This document shows positions 13,604 to 63,860 of a stretch of DNA of 64,000 nt, one piece after another; position 1 is the stretch's first letter; every line of letters begins with the position of its first letter. The notes under the pieces are model-generated. The model had not been told where the DNA came from and did no database searches. It worked only from the letters and a program-made list of their open reading frames with translations. The DNA is taken from assembly GCA_027623675.1 (NCBI GenBank), contig JAQBVF010000012.1:24350-88349 (forward strand), written 5' to 3'. The position numbers and the translations under genes are program-made. The stretch comes from Chloroflexota bacterium (lineage in GTDB: Bacteria; Chloroflexota; Dehalococcoidia; Lucifugimonadales; UBA3495).

Positions 13604-14767
13604 ATGATTACGAAATTTGACAGCCTGTACGCCGGTCACGTCGACATGACCGACATCGGCTACGGCGGCACCGCGGTGAACGACCGCTTGTTCGACAACG
13701 AACACCTGACGACCGTTTTCAGCAAGGCCGAAGCGATCGCCAAGACCCTGGACGCCAACGGCTTCGACACGATGTGGATGGCCGAGCACCACTTTCAGCC
13801 GGAAGGCTACGAGTGCATCCCCAATCTGATCATGCTCAACGTCCACCTGGCCCACCTGACCAAGAACATCAAGTTCGGCTGCGGCTTCAACATCGCCCCC
13901 ATGTGGCACCCCCTGCGCCTGGCCGAGGACTTTGCCACCGCCGATATCCTGACCAACGGCCGCGTGATCTTCGGCGTTGGCCGTGGCTACCACACCCGCG
14001 AGGTTGAGACCTTCGGCTCTCCTCTGACCGACCAGGCCGCCAACCGGGAGAAGTTTGAAGAGGCCGTGGACATCATCTTCAAGGCCTTCAACAACGAGTC
14101 CTTCTCCCACAAGGGGAAGTATTACACCCTGCCTCCAGAGGTCCCGTACCGCGGCTACACCCTCAAGGAACTGACCCTGGTGCCTCGTCCAAAGAACCTG
14201 CCGGTGGAGTGCTGGCAGCCCATCCAGGGCGGCTCCGAAAGGGCGCTGGACTTCATGGTCAAGCACGGCATCAAGGGCATATTGGGCGGCGGCGTCGCCG
14301 AGGGCGGCGTCATGGATGACATCGTCTTTGGCTATCGTGACGCATTGGTGCGGGCCGGAAAGGCCGATGCCCAACCCGGCGAGGGCCTGAGCGTGGGCTT
14401 CCACTTCCACATGGCTGAGACGGTGGAAAAAGCCATGGACGAGGCCCAGGGCTTCTTTGAAGAGAACCTGAAGATGTTCGGCCCGCTGCGCCTGCACCGG
14501 GGCATGACCGATGAGCAGATCGAGATCATCAGCGACCCCCGCCGCGCGCCCAACGGCGGTCTCCCCACCATCCAGAGCGCCGTTGAGAAACAGGCTTTTC
14601 TGGCCGGCCCGCCGGACCGCATCATCGAGCAACTCAAGGCGGTGGAGAAGGAATACCCCGCCCTAGAGCGGATCGGGATGAGCCACCCGATGGGCACCCC
14701 CCAGCATGTGATCACCGAGCAGCTTGAATGGTTCGGTAAAGAGGTCATGCCCGCCTTCAAGAGCTGA
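13604..14767 (+). CDS. LLM-class (luciferase-like) flavin-dependent oxidoreductase
   Basis: WMAEHHF, WHPLRLAEDFATADILTNGRVIFGVGRGY, EVMPAF. Confidence 0.92.
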   Translation: MITKFDSLYAGHVDMTDIGYGGTAVNDRLFDNEHLTTVFSKAEAIAKTLDANGFDTMWMAEHHFQPEGYECIPNLIMLNVHLAHLTKNIKFGCGFNIAPMWHPLRLAEDFATADILTNGRVIFGVGRGYHTREVETFGSPLTDQAANREKFEEAVDIIFKAFNNESFSHKGKYYTLPPEVPYRGYTLKELTLVPRPKNLPVECWQPIQGGSERALDFMVKHGIKGILGGGVAEGGVMDDIVFGYRDALVRAGKADAQPGEGLSVGFHFHMAETVEKAMDEAQGFFEENLKMFGPLRLHRGMTDEQIEIISDPRRAPNGGLPTIQSAVEKQAFLAGPPDRIIEQLKAVEKEYPALERIGMSHPMGTPQHVITEQLEWFGKEVMPAFKS

Positions 14768-14835: not shown

Positions 14836-14865
14836 AAGCCGGCGGACCCTGTCCGCCGGTTTTTT
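14836..14865 (+). terminator. Intrinsic terminator
   Basis: GCCGGCGGAC-CCT-GTCCGCCGGT followed by TTTTT. Confidence 0.8.
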
Positions 14866-14910
14866 GTTGCTAGAGCGCCACTGGCTTGTAACTCAACCCC
14901 CGGCCTGGCG

Positions 14911-14939
14911 TTGACAGCGAATTGCCCCCACACTACACT
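14911..14939 (+). promoter_or_regulatory. sigma70-type promoter of selenoprotein module 1
   Basis: TTGACA-17 nt-TACACT, 35 nt before ATG 14975. Confidence 0.65.
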
Positions 14940-14974: not shown

Positions 14975-16018
14975 ATGGTTTCCAAAGACGCGCTTAACTT
15001 GACCGGCGCCATTGAGCTGATGTTCGAGACCGGCTGGACCGACGGCTTGCCCGTGGTCCCGCCCACCGGCGACCGGGTCAAGCAGTTCGTCGACTACACC
15101 GGGCGAGACCCAGGCGAACTCATCGCGGAACTGCCCCCGCTGGGCGGCAAAGCTACGGTGGAGCGCATCGCCGTTAACGCCGTGATGGCCGGCTGCGTCC
15201 CCGAGTACATGCCGGTGGTCATAACCGCCATCCAAGCCATGATGGACGACCGCTTCAACCTGCGGGGCGTCATGTGCTCCACGGGCATCCACACGCCTCT
15301 GGTCATCGTCAGCGGCCCCATCGTGAAAGAGCTAAACATCAACGGCGGCTACAACTGTTTCGGGCAGGGCTGGCGGGCCAACGCCACCATCGGCCGGGCC
15401 GTCAAACTGGCCCTGGTCAACCTGGGCGGCGCCATCCCCGGCGAGACCAACAAGGCGACCTTCGGCCATCCCGGCGCCTACACCTACTGCGTGGCCGAAG
15501 ACCAGGACATCAACCCCTGGGAGCCGCTGCACACCGACACCGGCCTGGACGCCTCGGATAGCGCCGTGACCGTGTTCCCTGCGGAAGCCCCCCACAACGT
15601 CATGTACCACGCCAACAACCCCCGAGACTTTCTGACGGTGTTGGCCGACACCATGTGCACCTTGGGCAACGTGCAGATGTACGTGATGGGCGACACATTC
15701 GTGGTCATCGGCCCCGAACACGCCCGTTTCCTGCATGACGGCGGCTGGCGCAAGCAGGACATCCGCCAGTTCCTCTTTGAGCATGCCAGGAAGCCGGTCC
15801 GCGAGCTGAAACACGGCGGGCCGCCCCAGGGTGACGCCAACCGGGGTCACTTCTGGCCCCGGTTCGTGGACGCCAATGACGACGAACAGATGGTGCCGGT
15901 GGTGCGTGCCGCCGACCGCATCCATATCATGGTGGCCGGGGGCAGCGGCGGTCCTCACTCGGTGTACCTTCCCGGCTGGGGCTCGCGCCGGGTGACCAAG
16001 AAGATCGAGCGGACATAA
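14975..16018 (+). CDS. Conserved protein of unknown function, partner of UGSC selenoprotein (copy 1)
   Basis: GWTDGLPVVPPT, ATVERIAVNAVMAGC, ANATIGRA, YTYCVAE; clearly paralogous to 62823-63860. Confidence 0.85.
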   Translation: MVSKDALNLTGAIELMFETGWTDGLPVVPPTGDRVKQFVDYTGRDPGELIAELPPLGGKATVERIAVNAVMAGCVPEYMPVVITAIQAMMDDRFNLRGVMCSTGIHTPLVIVSGPIVKELNINGGYNCFGQGWRANATIGRAVKLALVNLGGAIPGETNKATFGHPGAYTYCVAEDQDINPWEPLHTDTGLDASDSAVTVFPAEAPHNVMYHANNPRDFLTVLADTMCTLGNVQMYVMGDTFVVIGPEHARFLHDGGWRKQDIRQFLFEHARKPVRELKHGGPPQGDANRGHFWPRFVDANDDEQMVPVVRAADRIHIMVAGGSGGPHSVYLPGWGSRRVTKKIERT

Positions 16019-16027
16019 GGAGTAGTC

Positions 16028-16627
16028 ATGGCCAGCGTATCTAGAGTGAGCGCGCCCGGTGTGAACGTGCCCGGAGCGAACCAAGCAGAGCGCCTGAAAG
16101 AGCTGGGCCTGCTCTCGCCCATCGACCCGGAGGCCTACTCCCGCTGGAGACCGGCGCCGCGTTTGGAATCCATCCACGGCAAGACCGGCGGTTTCCTGGG
16201 CAACCGCAAGGCCAACGCCAGCCTGTTGCTCCAGGGCGTGATGGAACTGTTGGACAAGGATTTTGAACTGCGCGACGGCGTGACCACCGACAAGTACGTC
16301 TATTCGCGCCCGGCCGCGGATGACATAATCGACGACCTGGCCACCCGGTGCGACTTCGTGGTGACGGCCATCGCCGATTGAGGGTCTTGCACCGCGTGCA
16401 GTGTGCACGACGCAATGGCCCTGGAGAACCGGGGGGTGCCCACGATAGTGATCTGCACCGACCCGTTCTTGAACTCGGCCCACCGCCACGCTAGCGTCTT
16501 CGGGCGCAAGGGCTTCCAGCCGTTGGGCATCCCCCATCCGCTGGGCGGAATCACCCCGGACGCCGTCTCTCAGCGGGCCGGGGAACTGCATCAGCAGGTA
16601 ATCAAGGCGCTGACGACCGGCGAGTAA
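16028..16627 (+). CDS. UGSC-family selenoprotein (199 aa, Sec at TGA 16379-16381), copy 1
   Basis: Track ORFs 16028-16381 and 16403-16627 are in one frame and join as VVTAIAD-U-GSCTACSVHDAMALENRGVPT; AGGAG RBS; hairpin follows the UGA. Confidence 0.88.
16395..16409 (+). promoter_or_regulatory. Putative bacterial SECIS hairpin (copy 1)
   Basis: CGTGCA-GTG-TGCACG; first loop G is 20 nt after the UGA. Confidence 0.6.
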
Positions 16628-16675: not shown

Positions 16676-17563
16676 ATGGTCAGAGTAGGGGCAGGCATCA
16701 GGGTATACGAGCAGGCGGAGAACTGGGAAAAATTGCCCGAGGGTTGGGTGCTGGGTCAGACGGCCATCGTCACCGACTCCCAAGACCGGGTTTACCTGTT
16801 CAACCGGGGCGATCATCCCCTGATCGTGTTGGACCGCGACGGCAATTTCCTGAACTCGTGGGGTGAAGGCCAACTGCCCGACGCCCACGGCATGTTCATC
16901 GACGCCGATGACAACCTGTACATGCCGGTCAAGAACAGCCACGTGGTGTTGAAGTACCGGCCCGACGGCGATCTACTGATGACGCTGGGGGAGTGGGACA
17001 AGCCATCGGATACCGGCTGGTCCGGCGACTACAGCGAACCGGCCAAACAGGCCGCCGGCCCCTTCAACCGGCCCAGCGACATCGCCTTGGACCCAGCCGG
17101 CGACCTGTATATATCAGACGGCTACGGCAACTCGAGGGTCCACAAATTCACCGCCGACGGCAAGCTGCTCTTCTCCTGGGGGGAGCCGGGCAAGACCGGG
17201 CCGGGCGAGTTTCACGTGCCCCACGGCGTTTGGGTGCATACCGATGGCCGGGTGTTTGTCGCCGACCGGGAGAACAACCGCATCCAGATATTTGACGCCG
17301 ACGGCAAGTACCTGGAGGAGTGGGGCGGCCTGGCGCGGCCCTGTGACATCTACATCGACCAAGACGATGTCGTATACGTCCCCGAACTGGACGGGTTCAT
17401 GAGCATCCTCAGCATCGAGGGTGATATCATCGCCACTTGGGACAGTCCACAGGACGCCGGCTGGGGCAACGGGGCCCACGCCGTCTGGATGGACTCCCGC
17501 GGCGACCTGTACGTGAACCAGAATGTGGAGGGCCACCGCCTGGTCAAGTACATCCGGCAGTAG
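16676..17563 (+). CDS. NHL-repeat beta-propeller protein (peptidyl-alpha-hydroxyglycine alpha-amidating lyase-like)
   Basis: FNRPSDIA, YISDGYGNSRVHKF, FHVPHGV, VADRENNRIQIFD. Confidence 0.88.
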   Translation: MVRVGAGIRVYEQAENWEKLPEGWVLGQTAIVTDSQDRVYLFNRGDHPLIVLDRDGNFLNSWGEGQLPDAHGMFIDADDNLYMPVKNSHVVLKYRPDGDLLMTLGEWDKPSDTGWSGDYSEPAKQAAGPFNRPSDIALDPAGDLYISDGYGNSRVHKFTADGKLLFSWGEPGKTGPGEFHVPHGVWVHTDGRVFVADRENNRIQIFDADGKYLEEWGGLARPCDIYIDQDDVVYVPELDGFMSILSIEGDIIATWDSPQDAGWGNGAHAVWMDSRGDLYVNQNVEGHRLVKYIRQ

Positions 17564-17757: not shown

Positions 17758-18771
17758 ATGCGGGCCGGATACCAAGTGGGGCACGTGGTGCTGCGGGGCA
17801 CGGTGGACCATCAACAGCAGTGGCAGGACCTCCTGAGCCAGTACCGGGCGGTCAACGACGCCGGGTTCGACTCGTACTGCTATGGCAACCATTTCCTGAT
17901 CGACCCCTTTCAGCACTTCCAGCCATGGACGGTGCTGGCGCGGCTGGCCGCCGAGCCCGGAAACATGACCCTGGCAACGTCGGTGCTGCTGCTGCCCCTG
18001 CTAAATCCGGTGGAGGTCGCCGAACAGGCCGCCACGCTGGACCACATCGCCCAGGGGCGGTTCGTGTTGGGGGTGGGCTTGGGCTACCGGCCCGAAGAAT
18101 GCGAGGCCTTTGGCATCAAGATGTCGGAGCGCGGCGGGCGTATCACCGAGTCGTTGGAACTGATGCGGCGGCTTTGGACCGAGGACGAGGTGACCCACCA
18201 CGGCAAGTATTACAATGTCACCGGCGCCAAACCGACGGCCCGGCCCTACCAGAAGCCCGGTCCCAAGGTCTGGCAGGCTGCCATGAGCGACCCCGCCATC
18301 CGCCGGGTTGGCCGCACCGGCGACATCTTGTTCGTGGGGCCGGCCCAGGGAAACGAGACGATCAGGAAGCAGATCGACCTCTACCACGACACTATGGAGA
18401 AGAACGGCCACGAGCAGCCCCAGGAGATGGTGGTCGTGAGGGAGTTCTTCTGCGCCGCTACCCACGAAGAAGCCCTGCGCAAAGCGCGGGCCGGCTTTGA
18501 GACCAAGTACCGGGTCTATCGAGAGCAGGGGCTACACGGCGCCGACGGCGAATTGGCCCGAAAGGTGACCGGCGACCTGGAAACGCTGATGGACGACACC
18601 TTTGTGCTGGGCAGCCCCGATGAGTGTCTGGAGCAGATTGACGAATACAAAAAGATGGGTTTTACCGACGTCATCATCCGTTTGTTCTACCCAGAGATGT
18701 CTCAGTCCGAAGCGCTGGAGCACATTGACCTGGTGGGGAGAGAAGTCATCCCGGAGATGCACCGGCTTTAG
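17758..18771 (+). CDS. LLM-class flavin-dependent oxidoreductase
   Basis: LLLPLLNPVEVAEQAATLDHIAQGRFVLGVGLGYRPEE; GGAGG RBS. Confidence 0.92.
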   Translation: MRAGYQVGHVVLRGTVDHQQQWQDLLSQYRAVNDAGFDSYCYGNHFLIDPFQHFQPWTVLARLAAEPGNMTLATSVLLLPLLNPVEVAEQAATLDHIAQGRFVLGVGLGYRPEECEAFGIKMSERGGRITESLELMRRLWTEDEVTHHGKYYNVTGAKPTARPYQKPGPKVWQAAMSDPAIRRVGRTGDILFVGPAQGNETIRKQIDLYHDTMEKNGHEQPQEMVVVREFFCAATHEEALRKARAGFETKYRVYREQGLHGADGELARKVTGDLETLMDDTFVLGSPDECLEQIDEYKKMGFTDVIIRLFYPEMSQSEALEHIDLVGREVIPEMHRL

Positions 18772-19272: not shown

Positions 19273-20169
19273 TTGGAAGTTGGAGTGATTTTCCCCCAGA
19301 CAGAGATCGAGCCTGACCCGTCGGCCATCAAGGACTTTGCTCAAGCCGCCGAGGGCATGGGCTACGCCTACATATTCATCGCCGACCACGTGCTGGGCGC
19401 CGACCCGGCCCACCATGATTTCCCGGCGCTGCGCACCTACAACCACAGATCGGTGGTCCACGAAACGCTGACCCTGATGGGCTATCTCTCGGCCATCACC
19501 GAGCGGGTCGGGCTGGCCACGGGCATCCTGATCCTGCCCCAACGCCAGACGGTGCTGGTCGCCAAGCAGGCCGCGGAGGTCGACGTGCTGTCCGGCGGAC
19601 GGCTGCGCCTGGGCATCGGCGTGGGTTGGAACACCGTGGAGTACGAGGCGCTGGGCGAGGATTTCCACAACCGAGGGGCACGCAGCGCCGAGCAGATCGA
19701 GGTCCTGCGGGCGCTCTGGACCCAGGACGTGGTGGATTTTCACGGCAAATGGCACAACATCAGCCACGCGGGATTGAACCCCCTGCCGGTCCAGCGGCCC
19801 ATTCCCATCTACCTGGGCGCGGGCAGCTCCCAGAGTCCCACGCCTCCGGATTCGGTGCTCAAGCGCGTGGCCCGCTTGGCCGACGGCTGGTGCCCCAACT
19901 TCAACCCCGACGAAAGCGGCCGCGCCATCGTGGAACGCACCCACGGTTTCATGAAAGAGATGGGCCGCGACCCCGCCACGTTGGGGCTGGATGGGCGTCT
20001 CCGCACCGGCGGCCGGCAGCCCGAGGACTGGCTGGACGAGGCCAAGGCCTGGAAAGAGCTGGGCGCGGACTACCTGTCCATCGAGAACCGCCAGGGCGGA
20101 CTGACCACCGCCGGAGAGCACATCGAGGCCATGCGGCGCTTCAAAGAAACTATCGGGTTCGACATCTAG
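19273..20169 (+). CDS. LLM-class F420-dependent oxidoreductase
   Basis: ADHVLGADP, ILILPQRQTVLVAKQAAEVDVLSGGRLRLGIGVGWN; TTG start with AGGAG. Confidence 0.9.
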   Translation: MEVGVIFPQTEIEPDPSAIKDFAQAAEGMGYAYIFIADHVLGADPAHHDFPALRTYNHRSVVHETLTLMGYLSAITERVGLATGILILPQRQTVLVAKQAAEVDVLSGGRLRLGIGVGWNTVEYEALGEDFHNRGARSAEQIEVLRALWTQDVVDFHGKWHNISHAGLNPLPVQRPIPIYLGAGSSQSPTPPDSVLKRVARLADGWCPNFNPDESGRAIVERTHGFMKEMGRDPATLGLDGRLRTGGRQPEDWLDEAKAWKELGADYLSIENRQGGLTTAGEHIEAMRRFKETIGFDI

Positions 20170-59938: not shown

Positions 59939-61552
59939 ATGCCTAAAATGACCGGAGGCCAAGCGTTGGCCAAGTCCCTGTACCGGGAAGGCGTCCGCGT
60001 GATATTCGGACTGCCCGGAGTGCAGCTCTACCACATGATGGACGGGCTGTACGACGAGCCTGGCATCCGTTTCATCACCGTGCGCCACGAGCAGGCCACC
60101 GCCTACATGGCCGACGGCTACGCCCGGGCTGGGGGACAGGTCGGGACCGCGCTCACGGTGCCCGGTCCCGGACTGCTGAACGCGTCGTCGGCCTTGTCCA
60201 CAGCATATTCAGCATCTTCACCGGTGCTGATGGTTACGGGCCAGATCGAGCGGGACCACATCGGCGGCGACAGCGGCATGCTCCATGAGGTCAACGACCA
60301 GATGGACGCCATCAGTCCCGTCACCAAATGGGCCCGCCGGATATTGGACCCGGCGGAAGTGCCCGCGGCGGTGCACCAGGCGTTCTATCATCTGAAGAAC
60401 GGCCGGCCCCGCCCGGTGGAGATTGAGATTCCGCCGGAGACGCTGGCTGAGGTCGGCGAAGTGGAACTTATGGAGCCGGAGGAGCCTCGCCAGGTCGTGG
60501 CCGGCAAGGAGCAGATCGAAGCGGCTGCCGATGCCCTGGCTGCAGCCGCCAACCCGCTCATCTGGGCCGGCGGCGGCGTCATCTCCTCCCAGGCTTCGGA
60601 AGCGCTGACCAAGCTGGCCGAGCACTTGCAGGCCCCGGTGGTCACCACCGCCGAGGGCAAGGGCGCCATATCCGATCACCATCCGCTGGCCCTGGGCGCG
60701 CTCTGGCTGCGGAACGACACCATCGCCAAAGAACGATTCGGTCACGACGTCATCTTCGCCGTGGGCACCAGGCTGGTCACGGCCCAATGGCTGGAGGGCC
60801 AGAGGGTTGTCCAGGTCGACATCGACGCCGAGGAACTGGGGCGCAACTACGAGAACACCCTGGGCGTCCAGGGCGACGCCAAACGGACCATGGAAGACAT
60901 CCTGACCGCACTACAGGCCAAGATGCCGGCTAAGGCCGACCGGTCCGCCCAGGTCCAGGCCCAGAGGGACCAGCGCTCCAACGACGTCATCAAGGTCGAG
61001 CCCCAAGGTGAGCTGCTGGCGGCGGTCAGGAGGGCCATGCCCGAAGATGGCATCTTGGTCTCCGGCATGACCCAACTCGGCTACTACAGCCGCGCCCATT
61101 TCCCGGTCTATGAACCGCGCACCTTCATCACTTCGTCTTATTCCGGCAACCTGGGTTACGCCTACCCAACCGCCCTGGGCGCCAAGGTTGCCCAGCCCGA
61201 CAAGGCGGTGGTGGTGCTCTCCGGCGACGGTGGTTTCTTGTTCAACTCCCAGGAGATGGCCACCGCCGTGCAGCACAACATCAACGTGGTGGTGATCGTC
61301 TTCAACGACAACGCCTACGGGAACGTGAAGCGCGACCAGATGAACCAGTTCCAGGGCCGGACCATCGGCGTGGAACTGCACAACCCCGACTTCGTTAAGC
61401 TGGCTGAGGCCTACGGGGTCAAGGGCTTCGTGGCCAACGGCCCCGCCGAGCTTGAGGCCACCCTCAGGGACGCCCTGACCCTGGACTCGCCGGTGCTGAT
61501 CGAAGTCCCGGTCGGCCCCATGCCCTCGCCGTTCTTCAGGCCGCAAACATAG
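59939..61552 (+). CDS. Thiamine-diphosphate-dependent enzyme (acetolactate synthase-like)
   Basis: IFGLPG, VRHEQ, PGPGLLN, GDGGF...FNDNAYG. Confidence 0.92.
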   Translation: MPKMTGGQALAKSLYREGVRVIFGLPGVQLYHMMDGLYDEPGIRFITVRHEQATAYMADGYARAGGQVGTALTVPGPGLLNASSALSTAYSASSPVLMVTGQIERDHIGGDSGMLHEVNDQMDAISPVTKWARRILDPAEVPAAVHQAFYHLKNGRPRPVEIEIPPETLAEVGEVELMEPEEPRQVVAGKEQIEAAADALAAAANPLIWAGGGVISSQASEALTKLAEHLQAPVVTTAEGKGAISDHHPLALGALWLRNDTIAKERFGHDVIFAVGTRLVTAQWLEGQRVVQVDIDAEELGRNYENTLGVQGDAKRTMEDILTALQAKMPAKADRSAQVQAQRDQRSNDVIKVEPQGELLAAVRRAMPEDGILVSGMTQLGYYSRAHFPVYEPRTFITSSYSGNLGYAYPTALGAKVAQPDKAVVVLSGDGGFLFNSQEMATAVQHNINVVVIVFNDNAYGNVKRDQMNQFQGRTIGVELHNPDFVKLAEAYGVKGFVANGPAELEATLRDALTLDSPVLIEVPVGPMPSPFFRPQT

Positions 61553-61923: not shown

Positions 61924-62472
61924 ATGACTATAACTGAAACGACCAAGCTGATAGTCCTGGACCCCACGGCGGCGCCCCGAAAGATGGAACAGGCCATGGC
62001 TCCGAGCCTCGACGGTCTGGGTGGGCGGTCGGTGGGATTTTTGTGGAACAGCAAGCCCAACGGCGACCTGCTCTTCGAGCGGCTGGAGAAGCTGCTCCGG
62101 GAGAAATACGAGATATCGGACGTGGTCTATAAGCGCAAGCCGACGGCGTCCATCCCGGCCACCGACGCAGTGATCGACGAACTGGCCGGGTCGGTCCAGG
62201 CGGTGGTCGTCGGGCTGGCCGATTGAGGGTCCTGCACGTCGTGGAGTATCCACGACGCGGTTGAACTGGAGAAGCGGGGCGTCCGCGCGGTAGTGGTGGG
62301 CACCGACCGTTTCAAGCGGCTGGGCGACGTTGAGCGGCGTTCCCTGGGCATGCCCGAACTGACCATGGCCACCGCCGAGCATCCGCTGGGCGGGCTGAAG
62401 GCCGACCAACTCCTAGCCAAGGCCGACGGGTTGTTGGAGCAGGTGGTCAAGGGCTTAACCGGAGGCCGCTAG
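61924..62472 (+). CDS. UGSC-family selenoprotein (182 aa, Sec at TGA 62224-62226), copy 2
   Basis: The frame stays open for 81 codons after the TGA: VVGLAD-U-GSCTSWSIHDAVELEKRGV...EHPLGG...GLTGGR-TAG; paralogous to copy 1 on both sides of the UGA. Confidence 0.88.
62237..62257 (+). promoter_or_regulatory. Putative bacterial SECIS hairpin (copy 2)
   Basis: Perfect 9-bp stem CGTCGTGGA-GTA-TCCACGACG starting at position +11 after the UGA; loop G at +20. Confidence 0.7.
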
Positions 62473-62514
62473 GCGGATCTTCCCCGGTGTGCAGATTCTG
62501 GTATGCAAGCTAAT

Positions 62515-62792
62515 ATGAGTCATCCCGGGCAGCACGCTACCGAGCAGATGCCGTCATCTCGGCGAAAGTCGAAATGACGGTCGGGCAGAGCAACCACACT
62601 CGCTACCTGTCATTCTGACCCTTCCGCAGAAGGAGAAGAATCTCTTCGCTTACCTTCAAGGTTGCTATCGTTCCGCGGACCGGCAGTTGGCCTCCCTTCG
62701 GCAACGAAATTCCTCTCTTAGCTCGGAATGACCAAGGCGGCCGGAATGATAAAGCTTGCGGCATCCACCCAGCAAACTCCGGGATGACTCAT
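62515..62792. mobile_element. MITE-like non-autonomous element (278 bp) with 14-bp terminal inverted repeats
   Basis: ATGAGTCATCCCGG at 62515 and CCGGGATGACTCAT ending at 62792; internal hairpins; second copy at 27079. Confidence 0.78.
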
Positions 62793-62822
62793 GTTTATAT
62801 TTTCCCGTAGCTGGAGGGCACA

Positions 62823-63860
62823 TTGGCCGACCTAGTATCAGAACGATTGGAAGTTAACGACGATTTCGAAGCGGTCCAAAACCTCTACCTAGATCGGGGT
62901 TGGACCGACGGCCTGCCCATCGTTCCGCCCACCGCTGAGCGGGTCGAGGCGATGCTGGCGGCCACGCCCCTGAACCCCCAGGACATCATCGGCGAGATAC
63001 CGCCCAACTGGGGTTCGGCCACGGTGGAGAAGCTGGCAGTGAACGCCGTGATGGCCGGCTGCCGCCCCGAATACCTGCCGGTGGTCATTGCCGCGGTGGC
63101 GGCCATGTGTGATGAGGCCTTCAATCTCTATGCCATCCAGGCCACCACCCACCCCTGCGCGCCGCTGATCATCGTGAACGGACCCATCTGCGACGACCTG
63201 GGCCTGCACGGCGGCTCGGGCGCTTACGGGCCAGGCTGGCAGGCCAACGCCACCATCGGGAGGGCGGTCAGGCTGGTTCAGTTAAACGTGGGCGGAGCGC
63301 ATCCGGGCGTGGGCGACATGTCCACCCAGGGCGCTCCTTCCAAGTACACCTACTGCGTGGCCGAGAACGAGGAGGCCAACCCCTGGCAGCCCCTGCACAT
63401 CGAGCGAGGTTTCCAGGCCGATCAGAGCACGGTGACCGTGTTGGCCGGGGAGCCGCCCCACAACATCAACGACCACGCGGGCAGCAGCGCCGAGGACATC
63501 CTGACCATCATCGCCGGCGCCATCTCCATCACCGGGGCCAACAACGCCTACACCGGCGGCGAGACCCTGCTCGCGTTGGGACCGGAGCACGCCGCCACCA
63601 TCGCCAACGACGGCCTGGGCAAGCAGGAGATAAGGGAGTGGCTGCACCGGAACGCCCGCATCCCCCTGGAGCGGTACACCCACGAGACCATGATGGAGCG
63701 GTTCCAGAAGATCCCCGACGGCCCGGTGCCCATGGTGGTCGACCCGGACCTGCTCACGATCATCGTACTGGGTGGCCCCGGCAAGCACTCGTCATGGGTG
63801 CCCACCTTCGGCGGGAGTACCCACTCGGTAACCAGGGAGATACGGCGCGTTGGCCAGTGA
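62823..63860 (+). CDS. Conserved protein of unknown function, partner of UGSC selenoprotein (copy 2)
   Basis: GWTDGLPIVPPT, ATVEKLAVNAVMAGC, ANATIGRA, YTYCVAE, GGPGKHS; TTG start with GGAGG. Confidence 0.85.
   Translation: MADLVSERLEVNDDFEAVQNLYLDRGWTDGLPIVPPTAERVEAMLAATPLNPQDIIGEIPPNWGSATVEKLAVNAVMAGCRPEYLPVVIAAVAAMCDEAFNLYAIQATTHPCAPLIIVNGPICDDLGLHGGSGAYGPGWQANATIGRAVRLVQLNVGGAHPGVGDMSTQGAPSKYTYCVAENEEANPWQPLHIERGFQADQSTVTVLAGEPPHNINDHAGSSAEDILTIIAGAISITGANNAYTGGETLLALGPEHAATIANDGLGKQEIREWLHRNARIPLERYTHETMMERFQKIPDGPVPMVVDPDLLTIIVLGGPGKHSSWVPTFGGSTHSVTREIRRVGQ

Follow-up and report, generated by a model that had tools for sequence, protein, structure and literature searches.

The stretch of DNA analysed here (the window) comprises 64,000 nucleotides of contig JAQBVF010000012.1 from a Chloroflexota bacterium of the Dehalococcoidia (assembly GCA_027623675.1), and it contains, entirely on the plus strand, a pair of adjacent genes that encode a selenoprotein of the UGSC family and a second protein, here called the partner. 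Coordinates given without a contig or locus name are window positions. The partner gene (14975–16018) is an open reading frame (ORF) of 347 amino acids that belongs to a family labelled Unknown_1; its product starts with MVSKDALNLTGAIELMFETGWTDGLPVVPPT and contains the motifs GWTDGLPVVPPT and AVNAVMAGC together with two conserved cysteines, Cys74 and Cys172. On direct reading of the sequence, the TAA stop codon of the partner gene is separated from the ATG of the UGSC gene at 16028 by a spacer of 9 nt, GGAGTAGTC, and the AAGGAG ribosome-binding site of the UGSC gene (16017–16022) overlaps this stop codon, an arrangement that points to translational coupling of the two genes. The UGSC gene itself (16028–16627) was recognised as a read-through ORF and by family profiles. 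Its frame closes with a TAA at 16625–16627, and the sole in-frame interruption is a TGA at 16379–16381, which would encode selenocysteine (Sec) 118. The read-through product of 199 amino acids has the motif D-U-G-S-C, in which Sec118 is followed by Cys121, and it carries AIAD-U-GSCTAC, LENRGVPTIVICT, GIPHPLGG and VIKALTTGE; the Sec-containing peptide is AIAD-U-GSCTACSVHDAMALENR. The original prediction for this locus, made from the DNA alone, had described a 199-residue read-through protein 9 nt after a 347-residue partner, and this is exactly what the locus contains.

The read-through protein matches the Pfam family UGSC (PF24696) with 163.1 bits against a cut-off of 25, with residues 29–196 covering positions 3–171 of the 172 in the model, and it matches the NCBIfam model NF041046 with 136.5 bits against a cut-off of 125. 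The U/C-G-S-C motif that is typical for the family is present as D-U-G-S-C at residues 117–121, and the family's alternation between Sec and Cys holds at this position. In itself the gene is no different from its relatives; it is an ordinary, full member of a catalogued family.

Two checks on the reading of the TGA as Sec had been proposed with the original prediction, namely a search of the genome for selA, selB, selC and selD and an alignment with Cys-containing homologs at the TGA position, and both came out in favour of that reading. The source genome (3.07 Mb in 48 contigs, 91.4% complete) contains a tRNA-Sec (70.4 bits, with the anticodon tca according to ARAGORN) and genes for SelA (554.8 bits), SelB (347.7 bits) and SelD (380.3 bits), all of them above the curated cut-offs. 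The selD gene (contig C3:53424–54344) has one in-frame TGA of its own, so SelD is presumably a selenoprotein too. All eight UGSC copies of the genome contain exactly one TGA, in the same column. A HMMER search of 1.84 billion representative proteins gave 879 relatives of UGSC at E ≤ 0.001, and the best 150 of these were examined for the Sec column; it is spanned by 135, which have Cys in 131 cases and another residue in four. Ten further database proteins stop exactly at ...A(I/V)(A/G)D, directly before the Sec column, as expected because gene callers cut the Sec forms at the TGA. We also scanned one genome per species for partner loci, which yielded at least 608 loci, and analysed the best 80, all from other genomes. 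The Sec column of the 64 genomic UGSC hits at these loci holds TGA in 59 and Cys in three (from Candidimonas, an actinomycete metagenome-assembled genome and Natrialba), while it is unreadable in the remaining two.

The TGA is also followed by a candidate RNA signal. The minimum free energy structure of this region has, 14 nt after the TGA on the plus strand, the apical hairpin of a bacterial Sec insertion sequence (SECIS) element, CGUGCA-GUG-UGCACG with GUG as the loop (16395–16409), and in this copy a lower stem lengthens the hairpin to 16381–16422. An alignment of the window gene with 65 Sec-form genes, of which 7 are paralogs and 58 come from other genomes (60 distinct sequences), has 95.8% of the cells of the hairpin paired, with changes on both sides in four of the six pairs; none of 500 shuffles reached as high a value, and no slid register comes close. 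For the alignment pair 21–27, 41 sequences have C-G and 18 have G-C; this pair links a Cys or Trp codon with the third, synonymous position of a Val, Ile or Leu codon. Rfam gave no match at the gathering score in the whole window, so there is no support for the SECIS at the level of an RNA family. The Ser codon in the loop (16400–16402; alignment columns 22–24) is almost always the rare AGT, with G23 and T24 nearly invariant among the 60 distinct sequences, and as this preference is kept in genomes of approximately 61% G+C, the RNA structure appears to dictate the choice of codon. Taken on the sequence evidence, decoding of the TGA at 16379–16381 as Sec is well supported.

Beyond its own family, UGSC resembles the selenoprotein subunits of the glycine and proline reductases. 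The window protein matches the NCBIfam model for GrdB (TIGR01917) with an E value of 1.3e-4, residues 97–195 aligning with model positions 325–420 of 431, and it also matches TIGR01918 and GrdF; all of these matches are below threshold, the scores being 21 bits against a cut-off of 602.2 for TIGR01917 and 18.1 against 65.45 for TIGR01918. When 90 diverse UGSC members were scanned singly, TIGR01917 was hit 26 times (E ≤ 0.01, best 2.9e-6), TIGR01918 and GrdF ten times each, PrdB seven times and GrdH five times, and no family outside the GrdB/PrdB group recurred. To compare UGSC with true GrdB we collected 61 genomes, out of 201 from Bacillota, that have a match above the 602-bit cut-off, each containing one TGA, and translated 21 of the genes. 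These proteins read ...AVILTST-U-GTCTRCGATMVKEIERTGLPVVHMCT...AIPHPLGNP. An hhalign comparison of the UGSC family (90 sequences) with this GrdB family (21 sequences) gave Prob 93.4 (E 2.5e-7) for an alignment of 72 columns with 29% identity. In this alignment UGSC 98–176 corresponds to GrdB 332–405, with Sec on Sec, Cys121 on the Cys of UxxC, IPHPLG on IPHPLG and LENRGVPTIVICT on EIERTGLPVVHMCT. A likeness to GrdB in a U-G-T-C...IPHPLG pattern had originally been noted, and the true GrdB sequences (STUGTCTRCGAT...IPHPLGNP) bear it out.

The likeness extends no further than this domain. GrdB, GrdF, GrdH and PrdB (TIGR01917, TIGR01918 and TIGR04483) have a C-terminal Sec domain that is homologous to UGSC, but UGSC is without the N-terminal GRDB region of approximately 330 amino acids, and a Pfam scan of the 199-residue protein gave no hit to PF07355, the model for that region. 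The two groups also differ in where they occur: UGSC in aerobic marine and soil lineages, Grd and Prd in Stickland fermenters. Judged by these comparisons UGSC is a relative of the Sec domain of GrdB and PrdB, with real homology limited to that domain, and it is neither GrdB nor PrdB. The source genome has in addition three selenoprotein genes of the GRDB family itself (PF07355, 40.6–47 bits) with U-P-[AG]-C motifs, at contig C5:31238–32497, C18:39342–40214 and C10:78607–79803.

The second strand of evidence is the constancy with which UGSC and the partner occur together. The source genome has eight UGSC genes and nine partner genes, and each of the eight UGSC genes adjoins a partner gene, in either order. 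One of the pairs, on contig C46, is an in-frame UGSC–partner fusion with the motif H-U-G-G-C, and another lies in the window itself, with the UGSC gene at 61924–62472 (TGA at 62224–62226) and the partner gene 350 nt downstream at 62823–63860. The best 80 partner loci come from Dehalococcoidia, Methylomirabilota, Binatia, Poribacteria, Beta-, Alpha- and Gammaproteobacteria, Actinomycetota, Acidobacteriota, Nitrospinota, Ktedonobacteraceae, a Bacillaceae isolate and the haloarchaeon Natrialba, and UGSC is found within 4 kb of the partner at 62 of them. Among the 64 UGSC hits, 63 are on the strand of the partner and 61 are within 303 nt of it; the partner precedes UGSC in 44 and follows it in 20. 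Of 121 evenly sampled Chloroflexota genomes, 11 have UGSC, 13 the partner and 108 neither. Every one of the 11 genomes with UGSC also has the partner, and the source genome has by far the most copies. Fusions are frequent as well: 15 of 24 long UGSC representatives have a C-terminal partner domain, and PF24696 is found in 80 of the best 120 longer partner relatives. The eight paralogous pairs of the source genome are old, the UGSC proteins being 21–41% and the partners 28–44% identical among themselves. The two identity matrices are correlated (r = 0.59, with 49 of 5000 permutations as good), and each UGSC has thus diverged in step with its own partner.

A further kind of fusion connects the partner with thioredoxin reductase (TrxR). 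TrxR-like domains (PF07992/PF00070) are present in 28 of the best 120 longer partner relatives, seven of which are named thioredoxin reductase by JGI, and all but one of the 28 have the partner domain at the N-terminal end. Each of these fusions has one CxxC, which reads CAVC (26 fusions), CATC (one) or, in the protein with the reverse domain order, CADC. At 13 metagenome loci related to one partner–TrxR fusion, a Sec-containing UGSC gene lies directly upstream in all seven for which upstream DNA is present. UGSC would thus stand where thioredoxin stands.

The AlphaFold2 (AF2) model of UGSC, built from a 90-sequence alignment with a predicted local distance difference test (pLDDT) score of 90.7, has five beta-alpha units. 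In the model Sec118 comes immediately behind strand 3, at the N-terminal end of helix 119–134, with Cys121 one turn on. The structures that match it in Foldseek and in a wide VIA search are flavodoxin-like, CheY-like, lumazine-synthase and periplasmic binding protein (PBP)-type folds with Z scores of 9–11.3, and 298 chains have Z ≥ 8. No thioredoxin was among the best 50 Foldseek and best 50 VIA rows, an absence from hit lists that does not exclude the fold, and a search of PDB sequences with the UGSC profile gave chance hits only (coiled coils, cysteine synthase) and no GrdB or PrdB chain. The modelled fold is therefore flavodoxin-like, unlike the likely thioredoxin-like fold given in the literature. 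UGSC does resemble thioredoxin, of the low-Mr thioredoxin reductase system, in being a small protein with a redox pair at the N-terminus of a helix, CxxC in thioredoxin and UxxC in UGSC, but it differs in its five beta-alpha units and flavodoxin-like matches, and it is dedicated to one partner whereas thioredoxin is a general reductant.

Pfam and NCBIfam scans of the 347-residue partner gave no family, PF09338 included. The partner family is nevertheless very large: 7993 of 8000 scored candidates, which represent clusters at 90% identity, match at E ≤ 1e-3, and those with a name among the 120 listed relatives are all called hypothetical protein. The conserved columns are G20-W-x-D-G-L-P-x-x-P-P-T31, N68-x-V-M-A-G-C74, N113-G-P, G130-x-G-x-R-A-N-A-x-I-G-R-A142, C172-x-x-E175, W182, H249 and G322-G...H328-S. 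Of 82 genomic copies at least 75 keep Cys74, and no genomic copy has a TGA that could encode Sec inside the partner match. The ESM Atlas returned unnamed clusters, a UGSC-carrying cluster (0.89) and one that bears the automatic name Thioredoxin family protein, and gave no functional lead. Seven partner genes, mostly of the Poribacteria type, are without profile positions ~283–317 and have no UGSC within 4 kb, while Cys74 and Cys172 are kept; they appear to represent a form of the partner that stands alone. An in-frame stop that had been considered for these Poribacteria-type genes turned out to be the shorter variant itself, which lacks approximately 35 residues.

We consider it probable, at roughly 60%, that the pair is a two-subunit thiol- or selenol-dependent reductase with a Sec-x-x-Cys centre on UGSC, a substrate site on the partner and electrons from a TrxR-type flavoprotein. 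The analyses above establish Sec decoding, homology to the Sec domain of GrdB, conserved pairing and fusions of both kinds; beyond these we infer for the pair a physical complex, redox chemistry, an electron source and a class of substrates, which would fit together as follows. UGSC would be a small flavodoxin-like alpha/beta subunit with a C-terminal half homologous to the Sec domain of GrdB and PrdB. The selenol of Sec118 would be the attacking or reducing group, as has been proposed for PrdB and GrdB, and Cys121 would resolve Sec118 into a selenenyl-sulfide. The partner would supply the substrate site from its invariant polar residues together with Cys74 and Cys172; the putative pocket of conserved polar residues comprises D23, N68, T103, N113, R134, N136, R141, E175, H249 and H328. 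The oxidised Se–S bond would then probably be re-reduced by a TrxR-type NAD(P)H flavoprotein, because in other lineages the partner is found fused to a flavoprotein of that type. The variable catabolic neighbours of the pairs suggest that the substrates are dissolved organic compounds such as small organic acids, and the ancient divergence of the eight pairs suggests that each has a substrate of its own.

The possibility of a physical complex was examined by structure prediction on P0207, a natural Cys-form fusion homolog, rather than on the proteins of the window, using residues 215–561 as the partner half and 1–200 as the UGSC half. The halves scored 0.50 against 0.00 for the best control, the runs agreed in at least 93% of contacts, and the partner had a pLDDT of at least 83. 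The mark applied to such scores is reached by 51 of 78 solved complexes and by 2 of 108 mismatched pairs; reaching it at a score of 0.60 or less is seen in only 5 of the 78 solved complexes but in all 4 of the mismatches that pass (of 180). The result for P0207 lends weak support to a complex.

Several observations weigh against a two-subunit reductase of this kind. The P0207 prediction gives no contacts and no interface model that would tie Sec118 to the partner cysteines, and docking between two halves that come from the same fusion may be trivial. The position of Cys121 is occupied by Ser in 8 of the 135 homologs. Compared with the three PrdB-like proteins of its own genome, UGSC reaches only Prob 3.5 and E 0.012, in the same register, a weak value obtained with a template of three sequences. 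No TrxR-like gene lies beside the partner at any of the nine loci of the source genome, that is the eight pairs and the additional partner copy on contig C26. The partner has no UGSC within 4 kb at 18 of the 80 loci, several of them on short contigs, and it occurs alone in 2 of the 13 partner-holding Chloroflexota genomes and in the C26 copy, which indicates that the partner can work alone or with another donor. Finally, the weak likeness of the partner model to fumarate hydratase, described below, would fit a non-redox hydro-lyase equally well.

One alternative takes the partner, UGSC and the two genes behind them as a fixed four-gene pathway unit in this group of orthologs, which we regard as somewhat unlikely. 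The first of these genes encodes an NHL-repeat beta-propeller (16676–17563, plus strand; the best NCBIfam match is ScyF-like with 135.8 bits against a cut-off of 350) and the second a luciferase-like (LLM) oxidoreductase identified by family profiles (17758–18771, plus strand). The order partner–UGSC–NHL–LLM is kept in orthologs of approximately 80% identity, with both the NHL gene (in one case weakly, E 5.5e-22) and the LLM gene present in 11 of 11. A second pair of the genome, on contig C13, also has an adjoining NHL gene, and there is a single promoter-like site upstream of the cluster and no plus-strand terminator-like site was found inside it. The promoter-like site (14911–14939, plus strand), 36 nt upstream of the partner ATG, is a sigma-70-like match of 10/12 (TTGACA-17-TACACT) and a consensus match only, with 2 such sites in the region against 1.2 expected. 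Further upstream, a G+C-rich hairpin followed by a T run (CCGGCGGACCCTGTCCGCCGG TTTTTTGTTG; 14839–14869, plus strand) is terminator-like on direct reading and closes the upstream LLM gene unit; the consensus scan gave the same stem on the minus strand only.

Synteny in close relatives is, however, expected from descent alone, and outside the ortholog group the NHL gene is present at only one of 69 loci. Over all 80 loci the NHL propeller adjoins the pair at 12, of which 11 are the ~80%-identical orthologs from Dehalococcoidia/Chloroflexota, and it does so at 2 of the 9 loci in the source genome. As it is largely confined to close orthologs it is not a general third member, a role that had been suggested as possible at the outset. 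The synteny of the LLM gene at 17758–18771 is likewise limited to the close ortholog group. Nor did another conserved third gene emerge, as no clustered neighbour family occurs at more than 7 of the 69 non-orthologous loci, where the commonest are enoyl-CoA hydratase (7), family III CoA-transferase (6), short-chain dehydrogenase/reductase (SDR; 6) and TctC (5). The module is the pair, and NHL and LLM are not general members of it; both may act in a local pathway of the ortholog.

The surroundings of the other copies are diverse. The neighbours at the nine loci of the source genome include LLM oxidoreductases (at four loci), a flavin reductase, an IMPDH/NMO-like flavin mononucleotide (FMN) protein, Amidohydro_2, a GMC oxidoreductase, thiamine pyrophosphate (TPP) enzymes and SDRs. 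The pair at 14975–16627 lies amid three LLM oxidoreductase genes (13604–14767, 17758–18771 and 19273–20169), and LLM genes are also found beside the pairs on contigs C12 and C46. This abundance of LLM genes fits the expansions of flavin/F420 monooxygenases that have been reported for SAR202. The second pair of the window (61924–63860) lies behind a TPP-dependent enzyme gene (59939–61549), with glyoxalase, GNAT, alpha/beta-hydrolase and LigB-like genes around it. The C20a pair on contig C20 has approximately 1 kb (locus L044:9045–10076, minus strand) with small ORFs between UGSC and the partner, which by eye from their translations we take to be HicB/HicA toxin–antitoxin-like and DUF433-like. 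On the same contig an ORF of 125 amino acids (locus L044:12645–13019, minus strand) corresponds to the C-terminal half only of PF00837 (model 126–235 of 237) and may be another selenoprotein gene that has been cut at an upstream in-frame TGA. The pair on contig C13 has between partner and UGSC an ORF of approximately 200 amino acids (locus L046:8529–9236, minus strand) with C-N-C-x-x-G-C-P-C, presumably DUF1326-like, and the genes upstream encode the NHL propeller, a glyoxalase and a GMC oxidoreductase. The ninth partner copy (contig C26:103059–104141) has no UGSC near it and follows a UvrD helicase gene; the small ORF after it is presumably a dodecin-like protein.

A second alternative is that UGSC is a dedicated thioredoxin-like carrier, activator or repair factor and that the partner catalyses a non-redox reaction, for example as an Fe-S hydro-lyase related to class I fumarate hydratase whose cysteines or cluster have to be kept reduced. 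We think this unlikely. It draws on the predicted structure of the partner, for which the AF2 model has a pLDDT of 91.6 and a predicted template modelling score of 0.91. The best solved matches in Foldseek are class I Fe-S fumarate hydratases, with 7xky_A (E 2.8e-5, prob 0.99) and also the Leishmania enzyme among them, and in VIA these enzymes reach Z 5.2–5.8, with 172–177 aligned residues at Z 5.2–5.3 (6mso_A, Z 5.3, 177 residues). The alpha subunit or N-terminal domain of class I fumarate hydratase (7xky_A, 6mso, 5l2r) is thus the best solved match over most of the length of the partner. This alternative is also in keeping with the two conserved partner cysteines, with the occurrence of the partner without UGSC, with neighbours that include enoyl-CoA hydratases, CoA-transferases and carboxylate transporters, and with the placing of UGSC among thioredoxin-like redox proteins in the available parts of the literature.

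The match is a poor one, however: the template modelling (TM) score is only 0.31–0.36, the root mean square deviation is 5–12 Å and nothing in the sequence supports it, as the partner profile hit no PDB sequence at E ≤ 10. Neither UGSC nor the partner thus has an experimental template. Every Z is below 8, the range that VIA calls a common arrangement; this includes the best match of the C-terminal subdomain (~200–342), a chorismate-mutase/RidA-like arrangement with Z ≤ 7.1, and neither Foldseek, the wide VIA search nor a second look with VIA gave a partner match at Z ≥ 8. Only two conserved cysteines are seen in the partner, and these may or may not correspond to any of the three ligands that bind the cluster in class I fumarate hydratase. 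On the model, the partner appears to have no clear relative among solved folds, and we do not claim a new fold for it. The tight coupling, frequent fusion and co-divergence of the two proteins argue for UGSC as a stoichiometric subunit rather than a general carrier.

The original prediction had raised the possibility of an enzyme that works as the glycine and proline reductases do, and this we consider very doubtful. In such an enzyme a pyruvoyl or other carbonyl group of the partner would bind an amine, and the selenol of UGSC would cleave a C–N or C–S bond reductively. The homology of the C-terminal half of UGSC to the Sec domain of GrdB, with UxxC in register and the GrdB motif of the original prediction present in the true sequences, speaks for this proposal, as does a two-subunit organisation analogous to PrdA/PrdB. 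Against a GrdE/PrdA profile made from 17 sequences of GrdB-holding genomes the partner gave Prob 0.35 and E 0.17, it has no PF09338 hit and no identifiable self-cleavage site, and its homology to the pyruvoyl proproteins GrdE and PrdA is not detectable. No PF09338 gene was found in the 91.4%-complete genome, while the same search was positive in 5 of 5 known GrdB genomes. In profile comparison the partner shows no likeness to the N-terminus of GrdB either, and UGSC is itself without PF07355. The idea that partner and UGSC together are a split or permuted GrdB was likewise rejected, the partner giving Prob 0.64 with full-length GrdB and 0.13 with the PrdB-like proteins. The three PrdB-like proteins of this genome are themselves found where no GrdE/PrdA gene was detected.

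The last alternative, that the TGA is a real stop and that 16028–16381 and 16403–16627 are two small genes or one broken gene, takes its appeal from standard gene calling, which splits the gene there, and from database proteins that end at the same point, and its probability is negligible given that the TGA is held at the exact column in 59 of 64 hits across phyla with Cys codons as the sole substitute among genomic hits, that compensatory changes preserve the hairpin which follows it, that the Sec machinery is complete and that one Pfam model covers both halves end to end.

UGSC is the UGSC-containing protein of Zhang and Gladyshev, and in the accessible portions of their papers it has no known function and a "likely" thioredoxin fold (PMC1976440, PMC2398784). 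The second of these (PMC2398784) counts 255 UGSC genes in the Global Ocean Sampling data, which places the family fifth among 51 of prokaryotic selenoproteins, and in a review of 2026 (PMC13188914) its function is still given as uncharacterised. Figure S1A of Zhang and Gladyshev 2008 (PMC2398784) depicts UGSC fused to a domain named Unknown_1, and the printed block of this domain, AVNGVMAGCRPEYMP...NGP..., aligns with AVNAVMAGCVPEYMP...SGP of the window partner. The Unknown_1 block therefore belongs to the partner family, and the link between UGSC and the partner has been in print since 2008 in the form of a fusion. The proposal of an undescribed two-subunit pair has thus held as far as a conserved and often fused pair is concerned, but not in the word undescribed. 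Where UGSC and GrdB are both named, they are listed side by side only, with no statement of homology in the accessible parts of the sources (PMC1976440, PMC2398784 and reviews from 2022 and 2026).

Several results have no counterpart in the literature that could be searched: UGSC is homologous to the Sec domain of the Stickland reductases, its modelled fold is not that of thioredoxin, it is paired with the partner in near-constant operonic fashion in many phyla, the partner is fused to TrxR in proteins with UGSC encoded upstream, and a single genome contains eight pairs that have diverged together. Standard annotation cuts every Sec form of UGSC in two. The homology of the Sec domain, the near-constant unnamed partner and the TrxR fusions make the question of what UGSC does a testable one. 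It is possible, though we put this forward only tentatively, that these pairs represent a widespread, uncharacterised class of NAD(P)H/TrxR-driven selenoenzymes, in which a minimal selenol domain of the GrdB/PrdB type is combined with a catalytic subunit of unsolved fold, and that the eight co-evolving pairs are specialised for different substrates in the degradation of recalcitrant dissolved organic matter. If true, such a class would explain the abundance of UGSC among the selenoprotein families in ocean and freshwater metagenomes. The eight pairs in one 3-Mb genome make up a natural panel of specificities.

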